From Thermodesulfobacteriota bacterium (GTDB lineage: Bacteria > Desulfobacterota > Desulfobacteria > Desulfobacterales > C00003060), in the NCBI GenBank assembly GCA_034189385.1, contig JAXHVD010000009.1, positions 1 to 64,000 of the forward strand: 64,000 bases of DNA, in the 5' to 3' direction. Position numbers and translations under genes: made by a program. This document shows positions 10,996 to 27,894 of the stretch, in pieces. The notes beneath the pieces were generated by a model. That model worked only from the letters and a program-made list of their open reading frames with translations. It ran no database searches and was not told the origin of the DNA. Positions within the stretch are counted from its first letter, which is position 1, and each line of letters opens with the position of its first letter.

Positions 10996-11769
10996 TTAGA
11001 CTATTCTTCCAGAGTAGACTTTTGTCACGTATTCGAAGGAAACTACCCCTTGCTTGTTATGTGTCTCAAATATCTCCTTCAACCTGTGGATCATCGGCTG
11101 ATACTGCTCATTGTCCGGGAGCGGCGCGTAGCTAGAGGACAACAGCCTTCCCAGCAGACCTTGGTAGTCTACACTCTGCCGATTTTCAAATGTTTTAAGT
11201 GTGTATTTGTAAGGGTAAAAAAAGGCCTTAATCCGAGATATGCTTGGGTCGTTGCACTTCTCGTATTGGTAGTCAAACGCATAGTGGCACAGCAGTTCCT
11301 CATAATCTTTCAAAAAGGCTGTAGCATCTGCGGATCTGACATTCCAAATCAAGACAACAAATCCGCCAGGCTTTATGATACGCGAGAACTCCCTTTTGGA
11401 AGCATCCGCATTAAACCAATGAAATGCCTGGCCTGCTACAACAAAATCTACTGATTTAGACTCAAGGCGTGTGTCTTCTGCTGTTGCTTTGAGCAAACTC
11501 AAACGCTCGTATTTCTCGAGCAGTCTTTTCGATGCCTCTCTCATTTTATTATTTGGTTCAACTGCACACACGAAATTTCCGTTTTTCAGAAACATCTCAG
11601 ACAGAAGCCCCGTGCCAGAGCCTATATCCGCGACTACCGCTGACTGCGTCAGATTGAGTCGTTGTCTTAGGTATGAGATAACCTTATCAGGATACTTAGG
11701 TCGATATTTCAGATAGTACTGTACCCTTAGGGAAAACCTGCCTATTGGATTTTCTCTGAGCTCTTTCAC
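10996..11769 (-). CDS. Class I SAM-dependent methyltransferase
   Basis: YRPKYP, ADIGSGTG, VEPN, AGQAFHWF, WN.R. Confidence 0.9.
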   Translation of the reverse strand: MKELRENPIGRFSLRVQYYLKYRPKYPDKVISYLRQRLNLTQSAVVADIGSGTGLLSEMFLKNGNFVCAVEPNNKMREASKRLLEKYERLSLLKATAEDTRLESKSVDFVVAGQAFHWFNADASKREFSRIIKPGGFVVLIWNVRSADATAFLKDYEELLCHYAFDYQYEKCNDPSISRIKAFFYPYKYTLKTFENRQSVDYQGLLGRLLSSSYAPLPDNEQYQPMIHRLKEIFETHNKQGVVSFEYVTKVYSGRIV

Positions 11770-11941
11770 TGTTGAACTTCGGTCGCAGGGAAACTATTGC
11801 GGCGCACACTTCAAGACTAGTGGGCGGCAATCCGGACGTCCATTTGTAAATCAGCAAAAAGCTTAACGGGCTGATTACATTGATATTTTATTGGTTTACC
11901 ATGGGAGACTTTTTCGAAAAAGGGTCCGCTCCCCCGCCCCC

Positions 11942-12116
11942 CAAACCACAAAAGCCCATCCTTCCAACAAAGAAAGATGGGCTTTCCTTATTCAATGCAC
12001 GCCGTTCACAGCAACTCCCCGGTTTAGGGTTGCAAATGGTCTTTTGATGGTACTCCAAGTCCTGGGTCGGGAGGGGTAGCAGATTGGTTCTATTTTGTCA
12101 AGAATAACAATATATA
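11942..12116 (-). promoter_or_regulatory. Promoter-leader-terminator module, copy A (copies B 13957-14118, C 15700-15861)
   Basis: TTGACA at 12096-12101, conserved CCATCAA.AGACCAT.TGCAACCCTAA.CGGGGAG, then hairpin AAAGCCCATC...GATGGGCTTTT. Confidence 0.6.
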
Positions 12117-12125
12117 AACGCAATA

Positions 12126-12196
12126 AATCTCTCGCAGAGCTCACGGAGAGCACTGAGTTTTTGATTTGAATCGCTGAGGGGGCGATTCACATCAAC
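12126..12196 (+). repeat. Cassette-punctuating repeat B, copy 1 (CRCAGAG triad + hairpin)
   Basis: tctcgcagagctcacggagagcactgag then TTGATTTGAATCGCtgagggggCGATTCACATCAA; other copies at 12602, 16235 and 17447. Confidence 0.9.
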
Positions 12197-12205
12197 GCGC
12201 AACCC

Positions 12206-12598
12206 TCAGTCCGCCGGTGGCGGGGAATTTATGATTCTCGTGATACCGTCTTTGAGCAGGGCTTCGTTGAAGTTTATCATCAACCCAAGGGGCTTGTTGG
12301 CCAAACGCAGGTACGTGAGAAGCTGCTTCTTGTGAACGTTCTGTATTGTTTCCACAGACTTCAACTCCACTATAATGGTATCCTCTACCAATAGATCCAG
12401 CCGATAGCCTTCCTCATGGACTCTTTGCCCTCGATAGAAGATCGGCAAGGGCACTTCAGGCTGGACCGTCAGACCCATGGCCTCCAATTCAATGACCATA
12501 CAGGACTGATACACGCTCTCCAACAACCCCGGCCCCAATTCCTTATGCACATGAATGGCAGCCTTTATGATCTGGGATGAGAGCTCATTCAGCGCCAT
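12206..12598 (-). CDS. GxxExxY protein (PD-(D/E)XK nuclease superfamily)
   Basis: VHKELGPGLLESVY, RLDLLVED.IIVELKS, QLLTYL, GLMINF. Confidence 0.93.
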   Translation of the reverse strand: MALNELSSQIIKAAIHVHKELGPGLLESVYQSCMVIELEAMGLTVQPEVPLPIFYRGQRVHEEGYRLDLLVEDTIIVELKSVETIQNVHKKQLLTYLRLANKPLGLMINFNEALLKDGITRIINSPPPAD

Positions 12599-12601
12599 AG
12601 G

Positions 12602-12694
12602 AATCTCTCACAGAGCTCACGGAGTTCACTGAGGTTTTGATCTGAATCGCTGAGGGGAGACGATTCAAATCAACCAGCCGAGGCTTCGGGTAAG
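12602..12694 (+). repeat. Repeat B, copy 2
   Basis: tctcacagagctcacggagttcactgaggttttgatctgaatcgctgaggggagacgattcaaatcaaccagccgaggcttcgggtaa. Confidence 0.9.
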
Positions 12695-12735
12695 AAAACC
12701 AGGTAGACGGAACCTGATTCTCACGCCTCAGTGAA

Positions 12736-13206
12736 TCACTGTTTATTGGGAGCCTCCTTGATCTGAAACCTTTGCGCTGCCGAAGGCTTGCTGTTCTTAG
12801 CGAAACGTACTTCCTTCACCTTTGCCTTCCGGGCAGAGATCGAATCTGCCAGCCGATCTATTTTCTTTTCAACCTGGGCAAGTGTGTTTCTCTGGGAGAG
12901 GAGCTGCACTATGTATGTGTTGAGGGAAATCTCCTCTTTTTTGGCCTGATTGGCCAGTGCGGCATGGAGGCTCTTGGGTAGCCTCAGCCTGGTCTGACCA
13001 CTGAAGGGTTTCAGCACCTCTGGCTTTGGAATCTCCTCTCCATCCTCCACCAAGACCTCAAGAAAGGCTTCTTTGGCGATGGCCAGTTCCCGAGCAGCCT
13101 CTTCCGGAGAAGAGCCAAAGGCGCTTAATCCGGGCAGTTCGGGCACAACCGCCACGTATGCCTCATCTTCTTCACTCCATTGAATGAGGGTGGAATGTTT
13201 TGACAT
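12736..13206 (-). CDS. hicB: HicB family antitoxin
   Basis: WSEEDEAYVAVVPELPGLSAFG, FSGQTRLRLPKSLH, SLNTYIV. Confidence 0.9.
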   Translation of the reverse strand: MSKHSTLIQWSEEDEAYVAVVPELPGLSAFGSSPEEAARELAIAKEAFLEVLVEDGEEIPKPEVLKPFSGQTRLRLPKSLHAALANQAKKEEISLNTYIVQLLSQRNTLAQVEKKIDRLADSISARKAKVKEVRFAKNSKPSAAQRFQIKEAPNKQ

Positions 13207-13469
13207 CAGTCTTCCTCCCCAAAATCGTGTAGACCAAGCTCTCTGACCTTGTCCAGAAGCTGCTTGACCTGATATGGCTTTGCCATCCCGTCACTGTCCT
13301 GAACAGACAAAGTGAACCTGGGGGGATCTTCCCGTTTATAGACACGATGGCTTCCCTTGGTTTTTCTTAGTTTCATTCCGAAGTGACGGCACAAGGTGCA
13401 GAGTTGCCTGAACCTCAAATTGTCGGGAGATACTCGGGCCGTCTCGATCAGTTTTTCAATCTTACTCAC
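13206..13469 (-). CDS. hicA: HicA family toxin
   Basis: GTG start at 13469; LRF..L, KGSHRVY, AKPYQVKQL. Confidence 0.85.
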   Translation of the reverse strand: MSKIEKLIETARVSPDNLRFRQLCTLCRHFGMKLRKTKGSHRVYKREDPPRFTLSVQDSDGMAKPYQVKQLLDKVRELGLHDFGEED

Positions 13470-13485
13470 AAGACCTTTTTGATGA

Positions 13486-13514
13486 ATGGTACCGCATATG
13501 GAACCATATGTCAA
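13486..13514 (-). promoter_or_regulatory. Sigma70 promoter of hicAB with overlapping palindromic operator
   Basis: TTGACA-17 nt-TACCAT; the spacer contains the palindrome CATATGGTTCCATATG. Confidence 0.8.
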
Positions 13515-13544
13515 GAGGGTAGTGGCGACAGAGAATCTCTCGCT

Positions 13545-13924
13545 CCACAATAGCCTCAAAGACAATCTTGAACTGCAGCATATTCCGCCACAGACCCACA
13601 CAGACTGCCACAGAATTATCAGACAATCATGGCAACCCCTTGTTCCGTGAAGGCACGAACCCGCTTAGAGTACTTGATTTCTGAGGATGTCACAGTTTGT
13701 GATATCCTCATGATCTCCTCGCGGGTCAAGGAGAACATGAAGTCTTCAGGAAAACGCTCAATATTCCTTCCTACAGCTTGATTCAGCACTCTTGTTTCCA
13801 CGCCATAGAGCTCGGCCAGGTCCCGGTCCAGCATTACTTTCTGGCCGCGGATGAGCAGAATCGCTGTTTCGATCCGCTCAGCAGGAACCAATGCATTCTT
13901 GTCTTTTGCAGTCCTCTTCTTCAT
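13545..13924 (-). pseudogene. ORF6N-domain gene, internally deleted copy
   Basis: [36 protein letters not shown] then a stop; an out-of-frame QFKIVFEAI remnant lies at ~13550-13577. Confidence 0.8.
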
Positions 13925-14253
13925 CTTTCCCCATGAGGGTGACTTCTCTACCCCAAAAACCACAAAAGCCCATCCTTCCAACCAAGAAAGATGGGCTTTC
14001 CACACTCCAATATCTAGCCTCCCCGATTAGGGTTGCAGATGGTCTGTTGATGGTCCTATAAGTCTTGAAGGCTCCTAACACATGGCCTTGATTTCGTCAA
14101 GAATAACAATATCTAAAGTAAATAGTAACGAGTGAGAAGTGAACATGTAGCCAGTTTTGGGTGTTAGGTGGGATGTTGCGGCGTAGGGCTCAAGGCGTAA
14201 GGCGCAGGGGAACGGAAGAGGGGATAGGGGAAAAGGGGAGGCGGAGAATGGGG
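13794..14253. repeat. ~460-bp duplication (second copy 15537-15996): leader module plus ORF6N 5' end
   Basis: Near-identical sequence at an offset of 1743 nt. Confidence 0.9.
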
Positions 14254-14369
14254 TGATTCAGGTCAACCAGCTAATCTTGCATAACTCTCTGGATTTAGAC
14301 GATGAGTGGGTGGGAAGGGGCCTTCCAGGTGGCACTACCGAGGAAGGGGCACTGTCATGCGGTGAGGGT

Positions 14370-14666
14370 TCACACCCGATCTTTCCAGCTCTGGGGATCT
14401 CTCCGGGCGTGCAAGATTGCCAGGACTACAGTCCTATCCTCTTCTGCCAGATAGAATATTCCGTAGGGAAAACGGCGAATCAGGCTGCGGCGGATATTCT
14501 TGTGTATGACAGGGTACAATTCAGGGGTGCGTTGAATGGACGACAAAGCGGCATCGACGCTGAGAAGAAACTGGGAACCTAAGCCCGGAACTTGTGTCTC
14601 ATACCAACCATAGGCCTCAGCCAAATCAAACTCGGCCTCTGGACGGATCATGAGAGGCTTCTTCAT
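14370..14666 (-). CDS. RelE/ParE family toxin
   Basis: PEAEFDL.EA..WY, G..F, RRFPYGIFY, VLAILHARRDP. Confidence 0.9.
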   Translation of the reverse strand: MKKPLMIRPEAEFDLAEAYGWYETQVPGLGSQFLLSVDAALSSIQRTPELYPVIHKNIRRSLIRRFPYGIFYLAEEDRTVVLAILHARRDPQSWKDRV

Positions 14667-14884
14667 GCCCCCCGCTGTATTCTTTCCCTCACGAATTCCC
14701 AGGGCGACCCGGCATCGGGATCTTGGTGATAGGCATCAAGGCGCCGGTCCAGCTCTTCTTTCTGTGGCTCTGTAAGAGGAACGGCATCCGGGACGGCAGC
14801 TATGCTGTCCCAGACGTCCTCGACAAGCTGAATCCTTTCAGAAACGCTCAATTCAAGCAGCTCAGCTGTCCTTGCTTTGTTCAT
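14663..14884 (-). CDS. Addiction-module antitoxin (TIGR02574-like)
   Basis: LSVSERIQLVEDVWDSI, ELDRRL, PWE.V; ATGA overlap with the toxin. Confidence 0.88.
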   Translation of the reverse strand: MNKARTAELLELSVSERIQLVEDVWDSIAAVPDAVPLTEPQKEELDRRLDAYHQDPDAGSPWEFVRERIQRGA

Positions 14885-15079
14885 AATATTATCCTATCAG
14901 AATGGGGACCAAGATTCAATACCGACGATGCCACGGTACTTCCGGACCCGACCCCGGACCCCGGGGACCCCGGGACCCCGGGTCGGACCGAGCCAATCAG
15001 TTGATATTCAAGAACTTGTCATCCCAAAAGTGGGTATTTTCAGGCTTAGACTGTCATTTTCATGCCCCAAAATGCCCTT

Positions 15080-15667
15080 CTAAGGCTTCGCTGTTCTTGT
15101 CTTCTTCCCTCCCTTGCCATATTTAGCCCGATCCTCTTTCACCTCAAAGCCGATTTTCTTTCTGGGCTTCTCAGGTGGTGTCATAAGTTCGGCGATCGCC
15201 TCAAAGACAATCTTGAACTGGTCGTCGTATTTCTTCTCGAGGGCAGCCAGCTTGCGTTCCAGATCCTTGTGGGCCGATAACATCTGCCGCAGACGGACGA
15301 AGGCCCGCATGATTTCAATGTTCACCTGAACAGCCCGCTTGCTTCGCAAGACGCTGGAAAGCATGGCAACCCCTTGTTCGGTAAAGGCCATGGGGGGATA
15401 TCGTAGGCCCATTTTGTCGCCTTTGGAGGTCACAAATTGTGACCTCCAATTCCCAAACTCCTCTTTTGTCAACTCGAACATGAAATCGGTGGGGAAGCGT
15501 TCTATGTTTCGTCTTACGGCTTGCTTCAGGATCTTCGTCTCCACTCCGTAGAGTTCAGCCAGGTCACGGTCCAGCATCACTTTCTGACCGCGGATGAGCA
15601 GGATCGCTGTTTCGATCCGCTCAGCAGGAACCAATGCGTTTTTGTCTTTTGCAGTCCTCTTCTTCAT
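15080..15667 (-). CDS. ORF6N-domain DNA-binding protein (intact)
   Basis: [57 protein letters not shown]. Confidence 0.9.
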
Positions 15668-16032
15668 CTTTCCCCATGAGGGTGACCTCTCTACCCCAAA
15701 AACCACAAAAGCCCATCCTTCCAACCAAGAAAGATGGGCTTTCCACACTCCAATATCTAGCCTCCCCGATTAGGGTTGCAGATGGCCTGTTGATGGTCCT
15801 ATAAGTCTTGAAGGCTCCTAACACATGGCCTTGATTTCGTCAAGAATAACAATATCTAAAGTAAATAGTAACGCGTGACAAGTGAACATGTAGCCAGTTT
15901 GGGGTGTTACGTGGAATGTTGCGGCGTAGGGCTCAAGGCGTAAGGCGCAGGGGAACGGAAGAGGGGATAGGGGAAAAAGGGAGCCGGAGAATGGGGGATG
16001 AGTGACGAAAGATTGTTTCTTGCCGCAGACGC

Positions 16033-16236
16033 ACCCCGATTGAATACTTGCAGATTCAATGGGGCAGGCGCAGGCGGACCCCGGTTGAATAGTCCGGGAT
16101 TCAACGGGGCGGGCACAGACAGGTCTCTCGCCCCAGTACGATGGTTCCCACCTACCCCAGTTAAACAACCTCCGGTTTGACGGGGCAGGCGGGCCGGGGC
16201 CCAAGTGAAATAGCCTTGAAATTTCACGGGGCGAGC
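16033..16236. repeat. Cluster of five ~35-bp palindromic elements (family C), one nested in another
   Basis: CCC(C)RGT...AC/ATGGGGCRRGC units at 16033, 16078, 16130, 16156 (nested) and 16199. Confidence 0.85.
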
Positions 16237-16537
16237 AGAGCTCACGGAGATCACTGAGTTTTTGATCTGAATCGTTGATCCCAGTTGAATATTGTGGGAA
16301 TTGAACCCTCCCGGTGGCCTGCGAAGCACTGCCGTCAGGCAGAACCCACGGGGAATGTTCACCGTAAGGTTGTTGTCTTTTTAACTATACGCTCGCTAAC
16401 CCCCAGCCCGCACAGCACCGCCGTTAGGCAGAACCTACGGGGGCTGCGGTAGCTCTCCTGTGGAGAATGCGCTCGCTTATTCGGTTCAACGGGACAAGGG
16501 CAAAGAATCCGATTAACGCGCCGATGCTTGGCGTAAC
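16235..16537 (+). repeat. Repeat B, copy 3, interrupted by a C element and the 184-bp element
   Basis: gcagagctcacggagatcactgagtttttgatctgaatcg...gcgccgatgcttggcgtaa. Confidence 0.8.
16301..16484 (-). mobile_element. 184-bp non-autonomous IS200/IS605-like element (PATE-like)
   Basis: Absent from the homologous empty site at 17512/17513; inserted 3' of TTGAA, ends in TTCAA, no target duplication, two related hairpins. Confidence 0.75.
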
Positions 16538-16702
16538 TTGCTGAATTTCCAGTATCAGGAGTTAAGAATCGCAGGAAGCTCAGGGGCTCCGTGGCTTTTC
16601 TGAGATAAAGGATTTTGGGATCCCTCACAGACCTGAGAAAGGTCCCAAGGACATTGGACGCAAGTTGGTGGTTGCGGCGCTTCCTGAGTTCCCGGTTTCG
16701 AG

Positions 16703-16918
16703 CTACAGAAGCTTTCGGAATGCCTCTACTGTCAGTCCGGCGTCTAGGACGATACCGCCCATGGTGAAAGCGTTGACAGGATTCTTCCGGGGGATGGTGA
16801 GAAACCGACTTCCATCAGACATGACGATATGCTTTCTTCCTTGCCGAACGACGGCAAAGCCCGCTTTCTCGAGTGCCCGCACTGCCTGAAGATGATTTAC
16901 ACCGGCAATCTTAGGCAT
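16703..16918 (-). CDS. hicA: HicA family toxin
   Basis: ALEKAGF.VVRQG.KH.VM, TIPR, GI..DAGLTVEAF. Confidence 0.88.
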   Translation of the reverse strand: MPKIAGVNHLQAVRALEKAGFAVVRQGRKHIVMSDGSRFLTIPRKNPVNAFTMGGIVLDAGLTVEAFRKLL

Positions 16919-16920
16919 TC

Positions 16921-17118
16921 TCAGACTGCTATCTCAACTTCCCGCACATCTTCACCCTGCACAGATTCAGATATGGCAGCCAGATATTCAAGGATGGCGT
17001 CCTTGATATTGTCCACCGCCTCTGCTTCCGTTTCCCCCTGGGACCAGCATCCAGGCAGCCCCGGGCAGGAAACGCTATAGCCGTCGTCGGTCTTCCTGAG
17101 GACAATTTTGTATTTCAT
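16921..17118 (-). CDS. hicB: HicB family antitoxin (short)
   Basis: GYSVSCPGLPGCWSQGETEAEA..NIKDAI. Confidence 0.88.
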   Translation of the reverse strand: MKYKIVLRKTDDGYSVSCPGLPGCWSQGETEAEAVDNIKDAILEYLAAISESVQGEDVREVEIAV

Positions 17119-17360
17119 CACCCATGCTCCTGAATGCGACCGAAGTCGAATCCAAATGAGAAAGCCCCAATGTTCTGATCATTCCGTTCCGATAATCGGG
17201 ACTCCTCGTCTGCATCTTTCTCAGTGCGCCGCTGATCATGAGTACAATAGCACAAAGGCGCGATCCTTTCAAAAGGGGACCTACCAGATCAGCAGAGAAC
17301 TTCTGACGTTGGGGAAGTCGGGTGCTGCCTGGTGTGACAGGGGCAAAGAATGGATCTCTC

Positions 17361-17565
17361 GCCCCAGTGAAATGGTCAACGGATTTCACGGGGCGAGCAC
17401 AGACAGGTCTCTCACCCCAGTACGATGGTTCCCACCTACGGGGCGGGCAGAGCGCAGGGAGATCACTGAGATTTTGATCTGAATCGCTGATCCCAGTTGA
17501 ATATTGTGGGAATTCAACGGGACAAGGGCAACGATTCAGATCAACGAGCCGACGCTTCGCGTAAA
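17361..17565 (+). repeat. Repeat B, copy 4, with three C elements
   Basis: C units at 17361-17398, 17414-17448 and 17491-17528 inside tctc..cagagc..cactgag..gaatcgctga..gattcagatcaac. Confidence 0.85.
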
Positions 17566-17609
17566 ATGATGAGGCGGAAGGCAAGCAGGAGAAAGCCGGT
17601 TACTGTTTT

Positions 17610-18041
17610 CTACGTGTGCGCCCTGTGAAGGGCCTGGACATAGCTTTCCACTTGCAGGGGGGAATGCTTGGCTATGAGATCGAAGTGGGCGTCGGCATGA
17701 ACCAGCACAGCGGACGCGCGTAGCGCACATGTGGCAATCAGGATATCGGTGTGGGGCACGGTGACGCCCTTGCGACGGAGCGTGAAGCCCAGCTCAGCAG
17801 CCTCGTCCCAGAGGGGACGATCTGTTTCAATACTTTCCAGGGCATCGAGTCCTTTCTTGAGCCGCCGGAACTCCTTTTCTGTCTTCGCGCCGCTGAGGAT
17901 CTCCACCATGATGATGCCCGTCGTCACGATGGTGTCTTCCCTGAGTAGATGGTCCACACGATCTTTGACCTCTGAGACAAAATCCTTGCGCAGAGCAAGA
18001 ATCCACAGGGACGTGTCTACGAGAAAGCGATCAGGTGGCAT
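17610..18041 (-). CDS. vapC: VapC PIN-domain toxin
   Basis: LVDTSLW, EILSG, DILIA, HADAHF. Confidence 0.9.
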   Translation of the reverse strand: MPPDRFLVDTSLWILALRKDFVSEVKDRVDHLLREDTIVTTGIIMVEILSGAKTEKEFRRLKKGLDALESIETDRPLWDEAAELGFTLRRKGVTVPHTDILIATCALRASAVLVHADAHFDLIAKHSPLQVESYVQALHRAHT

Positions 18042-18249
18042 GTCTTAATCTGTCCAGTTCTTCCAGGGTTAAATCGATCTCAAAGGTGCCCAACCCCTTG
18101 CGCAGGGCCTCCCTATTCCGGTCCCGAACGAGAGACTTCAAGCCAGCCTCGACTGCCTCCTTTTTGGTCCGCGCCCCCACGGCCTTCATGGCGGCATCCA
18201 GCAGTTCTTCGTCAATGACCAGTGTGGTCTTTCTCATAGCCATCTCCAT
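18031..18249 (-). CDS. vapB: VapB family antitoxin
   Basis: RKTTLVIDEELL..A, TKKEAVE.GL; overlaps vapC. Confidence 0.88.
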   Translation of the reverse strand: MEMAMRKTTLVIDEELLDAAMKAVGARTKKEAVEAGLKSLVRDRNREALRKGLGTFEIDLTLEELDRLRHAT

Positions 18250-18271
18250 TAGCCATATTCACTTTATGGTT

Positions 18272-18300
18272 ATAGTATATGTATTTACCGGAAGTGTCAA
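18272..18300 (-). promoter_or_regulatory. Sigma70 promoter of vapBC
   Basis: TTGACA-17 nt-TACTAT. Confidence 0.75.
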
Positions 18301-18571
18301 GCGTACAGCACGGAGTCCCTCACAGAGCCCGAAGGTTCTTTCTTTGCCGCAGACGAACACAGACATGCGCAGACTGACATCTGGCCGAGCCCAGTGAAAT
18401 GGTCTTCGGATTTCAACTGGGAAAGCCTGTCCCCAAGATCACCCGAAAATGGCTTCATCATTCATCCAACGGATGGTATAGAAGATAGCCTGTGTATAGA
18501 GGATATTCTGCCATCACCGAAATGGCGCCAGGTGATCGGTGGGATGTGCATTTTAACATTCTGGAATACTT

Positions 18572-19444
18572 ATGCGTCTGATCAGCTATAAAGGGGCCGA
18601 GGGGCCTTCCTTGGGCGTTCTAACGCCAAAGAGGAAAGACCATTTCACCCCTGTTTCCGGCCTCCACATGCTGGAGCTTATTAGGAGCGGCGCAGCCGGC
18701 CTAGAGCGGGTAAAACGGGCGCTCAAGGAAGGCTCCCCATTGCCGCTCTCCTCCATCAGCCTGCTGGCGCCTATCCCCCACTTGGTCCGTAATGTCTTCT
18801 GCCTGGGGTGGAACTACGCCGAACACTCCCGGGAGACAGCACAAATACGGGGCCTTCAGGCCAAAACGCCGGAGCGGCCGATCTTTTTCACCAAGGCCAC
18901 CACAACTGTCAACGGCCCATACGACGATATCCCCGTCGATAGCATGGTCTCGGAGCAAATCGACTGGGAAGTGGAGCTTGGCGTCATCATCGGAAGCGGT
19001 GGAAAGAATATCCCGCGCCAAAAGGCCCTGGAGCACGTCTTCGGATATACCGTGATCAACGATGTGTCGGCCCGCGATGTGCAATCTGCCCACGGCAAGC
19101 AGTTTTTCAAGGGAAAGAGTCTCGATGGATACTGCCCCATGGGGCCTTGGGTGGTGACGCCAGAAGAGATCGCCGAACCCCATGGGCTCGACCTTTACTG
19201 CCGGGTAAACGGCGTGCTCAAGCAGGAGGGAAATACCGGGGACATGGTTTTCGATATCCCTTCCATCATCGAATGGCTCTCGCTGGGCATGACGCTGCTG
19301 CCCGGCGATGTCATCGCCACGGGCACACCTGCCGGTGTGGGGTTTGCCCGCACCCCGCCTGAATACCTGACACCCGGCGACGTGGTGGAGTGCACGGTAG
19401 AAGGCATCGGCACGCTCCGCAACGGGGTCGTTGCCATCGGTTAG
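18572..19444 (+). CDS. Fumarylacetoacetate hydrolase family protein
   Basis: GWNYAEH, P.FFTK, DWEVELG, NDVSARD, GKSLDG.CPMGP, PGDVIATGTPAGVG. Confidence 0.93.
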   Translation: MRLISYKGAEGPSLGVLTPKRKDHFTPVSGLHMLELIRSGAAGLERVKRALKEGSPLPLSSISLLAPIPHLVRNVFCLGWNYAEHSRETAQIRGLQAKTPERPIFFTKATTTVNGPYDDIPVDSMVSEQIDWEVELGVIIGSGGKNIPRQKALEHVFGYTVINDVSARDVQSAHGKQFFKGKSLDGYCPMGPWVVTPEEIAEPHGLDLYCRVNGVLKQEGNTGDMVFDIPSIIEWLSLGMTLLPGDVIATGTPAGVGFARTPPEYLTPGDVVECTVEGIGTLRNGVVAIG

Positions 19445-27739: not shown

Positions 27740-27894
27740 GTCACCGCAAAGACGCGAAGAGCGCAGAGTCTATTTTTCTTTATGTTTTCCGCTGAGACGC
27801 CGGAAAACATAGAAAAGCTATCGCCTATGGTGAACAGAAACGGATTCCTTTGTGTCCTTTGCGTCTCGAGCAAGTGAATACGAGCGGCGGTGAC
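27740..27894. repeat. Inverted-arm element related to repeat B
   Basis: gtcaccgcaaagacgcgaagagcgcagag ... ctttgtgtcctttgcgtctcg..gcggtgac, with inner hairpin tatgttttccGCTGAGacgccggaaaacata. Confidence 0.8.

Follow-up and report, generated by a model that had tools for sequence, protein, structure and literature searches.

The 64,000-nt stretch analyzed here (the window; positions 1 to 64,000 of contig JAXHVD010000009.1, assembly GCA_034189385.1, from a Thermodesulfobacteriota bacterium) contains an island of toxin-antitoxin (TA) modules punctuated by a hairpin-forming repeat, two copies of which closely flank a gene for a protein of the GxxExxY family (PF13366). Comparison with other loci indicates that this repeat is one arm of an element in which a GxxExxY gene lies between inverted arms, and shows each clade of GxxExxY proteins to be associated with its own arm sequence. 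The explanation we favor, with moderate confidence, is that of a selfish nuclease/repeat family, in which the GxxExxY clades would cut their own arms, host repair would copy the elements, and leftover arms would provide homology and fragile hairpins in TA islands. A preliminary description of the island had proposed instead that GxxExxY may act on the repeats to mobilize or capture gene cassettes, as part of an undescribed gene-capture system.

The GxxExxY element

A profile built from eight copies of the repeat yielded 21 matches at E<=0.05 on 12 contigs of the genome of the window (G000; in the following, C numbers denote its contigs, other G numbers the genomes of relatives, and L numbers loci), i.e. 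the repeat is not specific to the island. The genome contains 40 three-unit arms of several types, compared to 0, 0 and 0 in three order-5 Markov controls, which excludes a chance origin of the arms. Among 36 other genomes of the genus, the arm is matched in 21 and PF13366 in 25, and a search of viral contigs with the arm pattern gave no matches. Rfam 15 has no family for the arm or for the leader L (another repeat of the island, see below); it gave no matches at the gathering score in the window, and chance-level matches only at 11700-18600. A terminator role of the arms is not supported, as their sequence has no U-tract 3' of the hairpin in either direction.

There are four full-length GxxExxY genes and one remnant in G000, and each of the three genes outside the window lies between inverted arms of its own type. 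This arrangement is the prevalent one: among 62 non-redundant GxxExxY loci with enough flanking sequence, the inverted match between the flanks exceeds the 99th percentile of shuffles in 48, and a stronger direct match above the same threshold was found in only seven, including the window. In the clade of the window's protein, the usual layout comprises a left arm with three units at 9-nt spacing, a hairpin, a linker, the ATG, the gene, the stop codon, a second hairpin, and the right arm. Full elements are located mostly between co-directional host genes. Mapped on the tree of GxxExxY proteins, arm type changes 8 times, compared to 31.3 times in shuffled controls (51 labelled of 63 rows), and type F1, to which the arms 1 to 4 of the window belong, is confined to one side of a tree branch, across Desulfobacterota, Verrucomicrobiota, and Planctomycetota. 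Thus, the link between the repeat and GxxExxY, suggested initially from a single locus, appears to be one of descent, supported both by inverted framing and by the agreement of arm type with the protein tree.

The same arm occurs mostly as inverted pairs, either around the gene or, as gene-less doublets, between core operon genes. We counted 25 distinct short F1 doublets (this number supersedes an earlier, stricter count of 4), 15 of which keep the palindrome-plus-TGA end (GGCTGA or GGACTGA type) before the second hairpin; six of the 25 still translate into the GxxExxY C-terminus, and on C30 the last 30 GxxExxY codons are retained between both arms. To judge from these remnants, the gene-less doublets are internal deletion products of the gene-bearing element. 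Comparison between species further shows that a given intergenic site may contain a doublet in one species and lack it in another. In the gap between lysA and dapF (L212-L241) an F1 doublet is found in 8 of the 25 informative genomes of the genus, the remaining ones having either other repeats or a short gap (30 loci were examined and 27 listed, two of which are uninformative), while at the junction of an ABC operon a doublet is present in G016 and absent in G018. An automated search for empty sites gave no clean junction, and these two cases document presence and absence only. Across species, the lysA-dapF gap holds unrelated repeats (F1 doublets, an F3 arm, and tandem arrays of 6-10 nt), which suggests a shared insertion hotspot. 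The window itself contains a complete gene-less doublet at 27740-27893, with arms of type F3 that match the GxxExxY paralogue on C17, and many more gene-less doublets lie between core genes of G000.

The GxxExxY protein of the window scores 149.7 bits against TIGR04256 (cut-off 35) and 146.6 bits against PF13366 (cut-off 22). In 61 GxxExxY sequences E27, D68, E78, K80, and Y96 are invariant and Q92 is nearly invariant. The structure model (predicted local distance difference test score, pLDDT, 93.8) matches PD-(D/E)XK nucleases, including Cas4, lambda exonuclease, and the nuclease domains of type IIG enzymes, with the best Z-scores (8.2-7.4) to proteins of the restriction-endonuclease fold and Cas4; splicing endonucleases are among the weak matches, and no HUH or tyrosine-recombinase fold is among the matches listed. 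A sequence search of the PDB found no relative, and Foldseek returned no match at E<=0.001. The model matches and the near-invariant catalytic set support the original assignment of GxxExxY to the PD-(D/E)XK fold, and the protein is predicted to be a bare hydrolase of this type. PD-(D/E)XK enzymes hydrolyze DNA without the covalent intermediates formed by the integron integrase (IntI) or by transposases of the REP-associated tyrosine transposase (RAYT) type, where REP stands for repetitive extragenic palindrome. Hence, joining of DNA would need host repair, and because the predicted fold is that of a bare hydrolase, GxxExxY is unlikely to perform strand exchange alone. PMC3424549 gives PF13366 as a family of unknown function, and in another paper GxxExxY receives a passing mention beside a reverse transcriptase. 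In the open literature, searched by title, beginning of abstract, or passage (most subscription papers lie outside this scope), we found no account of an element composed of the gene and its arms.

In two genomes, GxxExxY elements that differ in clade and arm type precede one and the same downstream gene (L016 and L040). In two other cases, again from two genomes (L076:1350-1650 and L147), a gene for a GIY-YIG nuclease with its own short inverted arms is inserted at the same codon (27/28) of a GxxExxY gene of the F1 clade, and palindromes resembling these short arms occupy the hairpin loops of many arms, including those at 16279 and 17491 of the window. The GIY-YIG gene and the palindromes possibly represent a second nuclease/repeat pair nested in the first. 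At L210:3074-3600 (G000:C45) an F1 left arm and linker run into an N-terminal fragment of DUF1016, which is closed by an F2 arm.

Arms in the toxin-antitoxin island

The four copies of the repeat listed in the preliminary description (12126, 12602, 16235, and 17447) are all present, all on the plus strand, and each is located 3' of a minus-strand module, i.e. GxxExxY, hicAB, hicBA, and vapBC, respectively; the three TA pairs are confirmed by Pfam. The copies form family D2 and exhibit 71-91% identity to that at 12126 over 56 nt. The architecture reported for them, a triad of units followed by a hairpin, is intact at 12126 and 12602, where three 7-nt units at 9-nt spacing precede a stem-loop (z of -2.2 to -3.0 in folding of single-stranded DNA), but it is interrupted at 16235 and 17447 by palindromic insertions within the first unit and within the hairpin loop. 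In the 17447 copy the stem restarts at ~17531 and the refolded stem has a z of -4.0, and in the 16235 copy there is only a degenerate second stem near 16505, beyond ~225 nt of other repeats. A different repeat, at 16296-16495, is nested in the loop of the latter arm; it has ~88 matches in the genome, none of them beside Y1_Tnp genes.

The island holds more than had been described, namely a fifth, half copy at 14250 (3' of the parE/TIGR02574 module), two ORF6N genes, three copies of the leader L, and several F2 arms (Table 1). It also includes a 573-bp duplication of 90% identity (13685-14253/15425-15996). Every arm in the island shares one polarity. The ortholog of the half-arm at 14250 is a complete arm in G008 and L263. 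The junction of arm 2 with the ATG of the GxxExxY gene is spanned without any difference by a contig of run X1, which may be the source sample.

Table 1. Features of the island in the window (positions are those of the window)
Feature	Position	Strand	Remarks
Leader L, copy 1	11936..12112	-	TTGACA-type promoter, Shine-Dalgarno-like motif, terminator-like hairpin; separate repeat family D3-D5; upstream of S-adenosylmethionine (SAM) methyltransferase gene
Arm 1, type F1	12126..12205	+	Units 12133/12142/12151, hairpin 12161-12195, 8-nt linker; stands where the native right arm of the GxxExxY gene would be
GxxExxY gene, 130 aa	12206..12598	-	PD-(D/E)XK fold (predicted); E27, D68, E78, K80, Q92, Y96 intact
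Arm 2, type F1, full	12602..12693	+	Triad, hairpin 12637-12673, further hairpin in linker; the outer end lies 3 nt before GxxExxY ATG, replacing native left arm
hicA-hicB toxin-antitoxin pair	12736..13451	-	Pfam
F2 arm (CCACAGAC units)	13585..13616	+	Polarity same as F1 arms
Truncated ORF6N gene	13619..13921	-	Within 573-bp duplication
Leader L, copy 2	13950..14111	-	
Half-arm	14250..14290	+	Inner half of F1 hairpin and linker, cut at loop, 3' of parE
TIGR02574 antitoxin-ParE toxin pair	14370..14884	-	
ORF6N gene	15080..15667	-	
Leader L, copy 3	15693..15854	-	
Arm 3, F1 units ~16235-16258	16020..16545	+	F2 remnants on outer side; palindromes nested in first unit and loop
hicB-hicA pair	16703..17121	-	Pfam
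Arm 4, type F1	17409..17566	+	Palindromic insertions in first unit and loop
vapB-vapC pair	17610..18249	-	Pfam
Partial F1 arm and full F2 arm, island edge	18316..18376	+	Same polarity

Analysis of 11 accessory islands of G000 reveals that, among the matches listed, 19 of 20 unpaired F1 arms or half-arms are antiparallel to the TA/defence cargo, with the sole exception of C45:146073; this is a hand count, in which two cargo genes were judged by eye. The other F1 arms of G000 (three pairs and four scattered singles) are either paired or located outside these islands. The same polarity is seen in the relatives G008, G015, and G047, and the view that the repeat punctuates TA/defence islands with one polarity therefore holds for this genome and three relatives. 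Before manual correction, 36 of the 72 arm matches in metagenomes had a partner and 25 had none, and the other 11 were truncated by contig ends; inspection by eye classified five of the 25 as degenerate doublets and three as chance matches. In all 12 of the remaining solo arms with a Pfam-named inner gene, this gene reads toward the arm; six of the 12 belong to the core genes (DnaJ, TatD, HrpB, dodecin). These solo arms are not independent, because a single data set supplied most of the contigs.

The ends of six half-arms fall within the hairpin loop or next to it, and they do not share a single base position. L259 contains a clear arm-TA-arm-arm-L array; in G047 the module L-ORF6N-antitoxin-parE has an outer half-arm at its start and an inner one at its end, and in G008 and L263 the order is parE-full arm-L. 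In 301 genomes of the order the parE-arm-L block was found only in G000 and G047 (G008 was outside that draw). At L201:4729-8963 (G047) the ORF6N/parE module bounded by half-arms lies between the two copies of a DUF4145-like gene, a direct duplication of 918 bp with 99% identity. Other breakpoints lie outside the arms: the 573-bp duplication of the window ends within ORF6N, hicBA on C42 is located between 460-bp, 76%-identical composites (spacer, arm, F2 arm, L), and a contig of run X3 fuses an antitoxin gene directly to hicB, with no arm between them. The polar arms share flanking sequence by descent, which implies few independent events. As for the prediction that gain or loss of cassettes maps to a fixed position in the repeat, the six half-arms agree with a cut at the loop, but the cut does not fall on one base and other boundaries lie outside the arms. 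A dedicated role of the repeat as a cassette site is not borne out, given that elsewhere it forms mostly inverted pairs and that module boundaries are found also outside the arms.

The leader L comprises a TTGACA-type promoter, a Shine-Dalgarno-like motif, often a two-codon open reading frame (ATG-AAC-TGA type), and a terminator-like hairpin; an alignment of 28 copies shows this hairpin to be conserved, with little covariation. It is present in ~21 copies in G000 and in 17 of the 36 other genomes of the genus, upstream of ORF6N, HamA, HsdR, IntI, TA, and other genes. By eye, none of the 27 L loci listed from other genomes of the genus has an F1 arm just upstream and one has an F2 remnant; thus, the linkage of arm and L is not general.

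The tight enclosure of the window's GxxExxY gene by direct copies was described correctly, with one arm 3 nt before the ATG and the other 10 nt after the stop codon, but it is an atypical layout, shared by only the seven loci mentioned above. Both flanking arms are of the left-arm type and have the same direction, and the native arms are both missing. Of the 9 nt that directly precede the ATG, 8 agree with the native linker of L068, the GAGATT motif before the ATG is found also in the outer end of the arm, the junction with the arm after the stop codon lies at GTTG, which occurs also in the native right arm on C30, and the native CAGGA ribosome-binding motif is absent. From these junctions, the direct-repeat framing likely arose by deletion of the native arms; two microhomology deletions involving neighboring single arms would account for the loss. 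Other departures from the usual layout include replacement of the left arm by an inverted doublet (L265 and L290) and outward-facing arms before the ATG (L072 and L114). An intact GxxExxY gene inside a TA array was found only in this window.

The array in the window is not an integron and its repeats are not integron sites. None of the 11 PF00589 matches in the genome is on the window's contig, in agreement with the reported absence of intI near the array. The reported absence of attC boxes stands for the arms, in that their stem ends in TTG...CAA and an attC profile misses all of them, but the window-wide screens are of low sensitivity: no attC-like sites were found in the window with a heuristic that detected one of the three C42 sites and a profile that detected two of six in a leave-one-out test. 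The outer boxes of attC have the consensus RYYYAAC...GTTRRRY. The one identified IntI of the genome, on C42 (G000:C42:2882-6803; integrase in L052), scores 428.5 bits against TIGR02249 (cut-off 265) and is located upstream of, and co-directional with, AT-rich cassettes bearing AAC...GTT attC sites; it is preceded by a leader L and by two F1 arms 0.5 and 1.7 kb upstream. More attC-like sites are found on C7, C45, and C57, and a profile of six attC-like sites from this genome matches no arm. An undescribed integron-like capture at the repeats is not supported: the true integron of the same genome uses canonical attC sites unrelated to the arm.

Mode of spread and rival explanations

In the selfish nuclease/repeat family that we envisage, GxxExxY would bind and cut its own arm type, host repair would copy both full and gene-less elements during spread, and the doublets would be mobilized in trans by GxxExxY. 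Leftover single arms would serve as recombination homology that keeps TA modules in a one-direction array. Polar arrays may have grown and been reshuffled as the host recombined the pieces that they have in common (arms, leader L, ORF6N), with an additional contribution of hairpin-tip breakage, and their polarity would be inherited from a few founder arm-plus-leader units, not set by a site-specific recombinase. The RAYT/REP half of the analogy drawn in the preliminary description fits much better than the IntI/attC half.

A number of points weigh against this scenario. All of its mechanism (cleavage, binding, transposition) is inferred. No inverted flank match above the threshold is found at 14 of the 62 GxxExxY loci. 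The arm labels are our own patterns, set after viewing the sequences, and 12 of the 63 rows are unlabelled and excluded; two small arm types (F4 and F7) are unclustered on the tree, and kin share labels. In G016, G018, and G037, whose genomes are 65-67% complete, F1 arms were found with only another GxxExxY clade. Neither a target-site duplication nor an exact empty site could be delimited, as the empty and filled alleles are too diverged or contain nested repeats. One Waddliaceae genome has 28 near-identical GxxExxY loci, in which the GxxExxY cassette with its arms is located at the end of a 1,763-bp element of the IS630 type (L085-L112, L135, L140; in L085-L112 the ends of the IS630 itself lie outside the arms). 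These copies, which look like a burst of self-mobility, ride as IS630-type passengers and hence provide no proof that the element moves by itself. Finally, plain homologous recombination between 70-90-bp, 71-91%-identical repeats would not obviously produce so regular a polarity (19/20, among the matches listed) or the six loop-cut halves.

A first rival is a direct role of GxxExxY in shuffling, which we regard as rather improbable. In this scenario GxxExxY would cut co-oriented arms at the loop, releasing or copying modules bounded by arms (promoter, TA genes, arm) that would then enter other arms, with host repair joining the ends; polar arrays would result, as they do from an integron. In addition to the 19 of 20 antiparallel arms in G000, the like arrangement in G008, G015, and G047, the 12/12 metagenome solo arms, and the six halves cut in or next to the loop, the order parE-full arm-L (G008, L263) is the junction expected of a circle or a tandem copy, compared to the half-to-half module of G047. 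However, most arms are inverted pairs between core genes, six of the 12 inner genes in metagenomes are core genes on contigs mostly from one data set, other breakpoints fall outside the arms, and an intact GxxExxY gene within a TA array is confined to this window. The flanks of the polar arms are shared by descent, and polarity may therefore be a founder effect. Hairpin tips break and accept insertions without a dedicated enzyme (SbcCD), and palindromes of another family are also inserted in the arm loop. We also regard it as rather improbable that GxxExxY drives an undescribed class of mobile DNA in which single arms are cassette boundaries in Desulfobacterota islands, and loop cuts followed by host repair shuffle TA/defence modules one way; if true, this would be an integron-like gene shuffling without a recombinase, next to a normal integron in the same genome.

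Alternatively, the arms may not be cut at all and may serve as operator sites, or as hairpins in RNA by which the insert is folded out of the host message. GxxExxY would then bind DNA or process RNA, and the elements would spread passively by gene conversion and horizontal transfer. The three units at 9-10-nt spacing resemble a protein-binding array, full elements lie mostly between co-directional host genes, splicing endonucleases are among the weak fold matches, and no self-driven copy burst was found. On the other hand, gene-less doublets retain the two arms and are found at new sites, which the operators of a deleted gene need not do, the E-D-ExK-QxxxY set is invariant or nearly so, and the best fold matches are mostly DNases; we find this explanation unlikely too. 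Even less probable, in our judgment, is that the arms are the ends of REP sequences or miniature inverted-repeat transposable elements (MITEs) moved by another enzyme of the genome (Y1/RAYT, an insertion sequence (IS) transposase, or the integron integrase), GxxExxY being a passenger. G000 does have seven Y1_Tnp matches and a true IntI with two F1 arms nearby, and the Waddliaceae cassette does ride in an IS630-type element, but no convincing F1, F2, or F3 arm is found at the seven Y1_Tnp loci (one 15-nt match, E 0.09), for which reason a RAYT/Y1 transposase was rejected as the arm partner, the cassettes of IntI end in AAC...GTT attC sites unrelated to the arm, and passenger status would not produce the agreement of arm type with the GxxExxY tree. 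The possibility that the repeat is a known MITE with its own transposase likewise finds no support, as the gene between the paired arms is GxxExxY and no known transposase matching the ends was found.

Relation to known systems

The association described here provides PF13366/GxxExxY, a widespread family, with a specific, clade-matched DNA partner, for which the non-cognate arms constitute built-in controls. If GxxExxY mobilizes the arms, a plain hydrolase would be running a REPIN/MITE-like system, by a route that would have to differ from those of known transposases, and this would explain a large share of unexplained intergenic repeats (such as the 40 three-unit arms in G000). If the arms also bound TA/defence modules, they would represent a new way of building and reshuffling defence islands. 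New at this locus are the polarity of single arms within TA islands, the halves cut at the loop, and the presence, in the same genome, of an integron that serves as a negative control.

Integrons, and clusters of attC sites without an integron integrase (CALINs), resemble the window in that they are one-direction, TA-rich arrays of small accessory modules, each followed by a hairpin-forming repeat, and a CALIN by definition needs no IntI (PMC4889954). They differ from the window, whose contig has no IntI and whose hairpin has no AAC...GTT boxes, whose modules carry long spacers with promoters and other repeats, and whose repeat occurs dispersed, in most cases as pairs.

Free-standing homing endonuclease genes, including those of the PD-(D/E)XK type, encode small hydrolytic nucleases that spread by cutting and by copying through host repair, which is the mode of spread proposed here for GxxExxY. 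In contrast to them, the GxxExxY element is found at many unrelated sites, with long structured arms and gene-less derivatives, and without an intron or intein.

In IS elements a gene is located between terminal inverted repeats with subterminal units, and their MITE derivatives are internally deleted with both ends kept. The GxxExxY element shares with them the terminal inverted repeats around a coding sequence and the retention of these repeats in internally deleted copies, but it lacks a DDE, HUH, or serine/tyrosine recombinase, no clear target-site duplication was found, and its left and right arms differ in their hairpins.

The closest parallels are with REPIN/RAYT systems as presented in PMC3116915 and PMC8266576: a nuclease-type gene framed by cognate repeats, gene-less inverted doublets dispersed in intergenic regions with singlets as doublet remnants, and several groups of repeats in one genome, each having an enzyme of its own and co-evolving with it. 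Compared to these descriptions, GxxExxY is a 130-aa PD-(D/E)XK (PF13366) protein and not an HUH/Y1 transposase, its arms are 70-100 bp long with three units at 9-nt spacing and not 20-40-bp tagged palindromes, its doublets appear to be internal deletions of a gene-bearing element, and several paralogues per genome occupy unrelated sites. By analogy, the GxxExxY element would work like REPIN-RAYT and like IS elements with their MITEs, yet its predicted enzyme is of the kind that defines neither.

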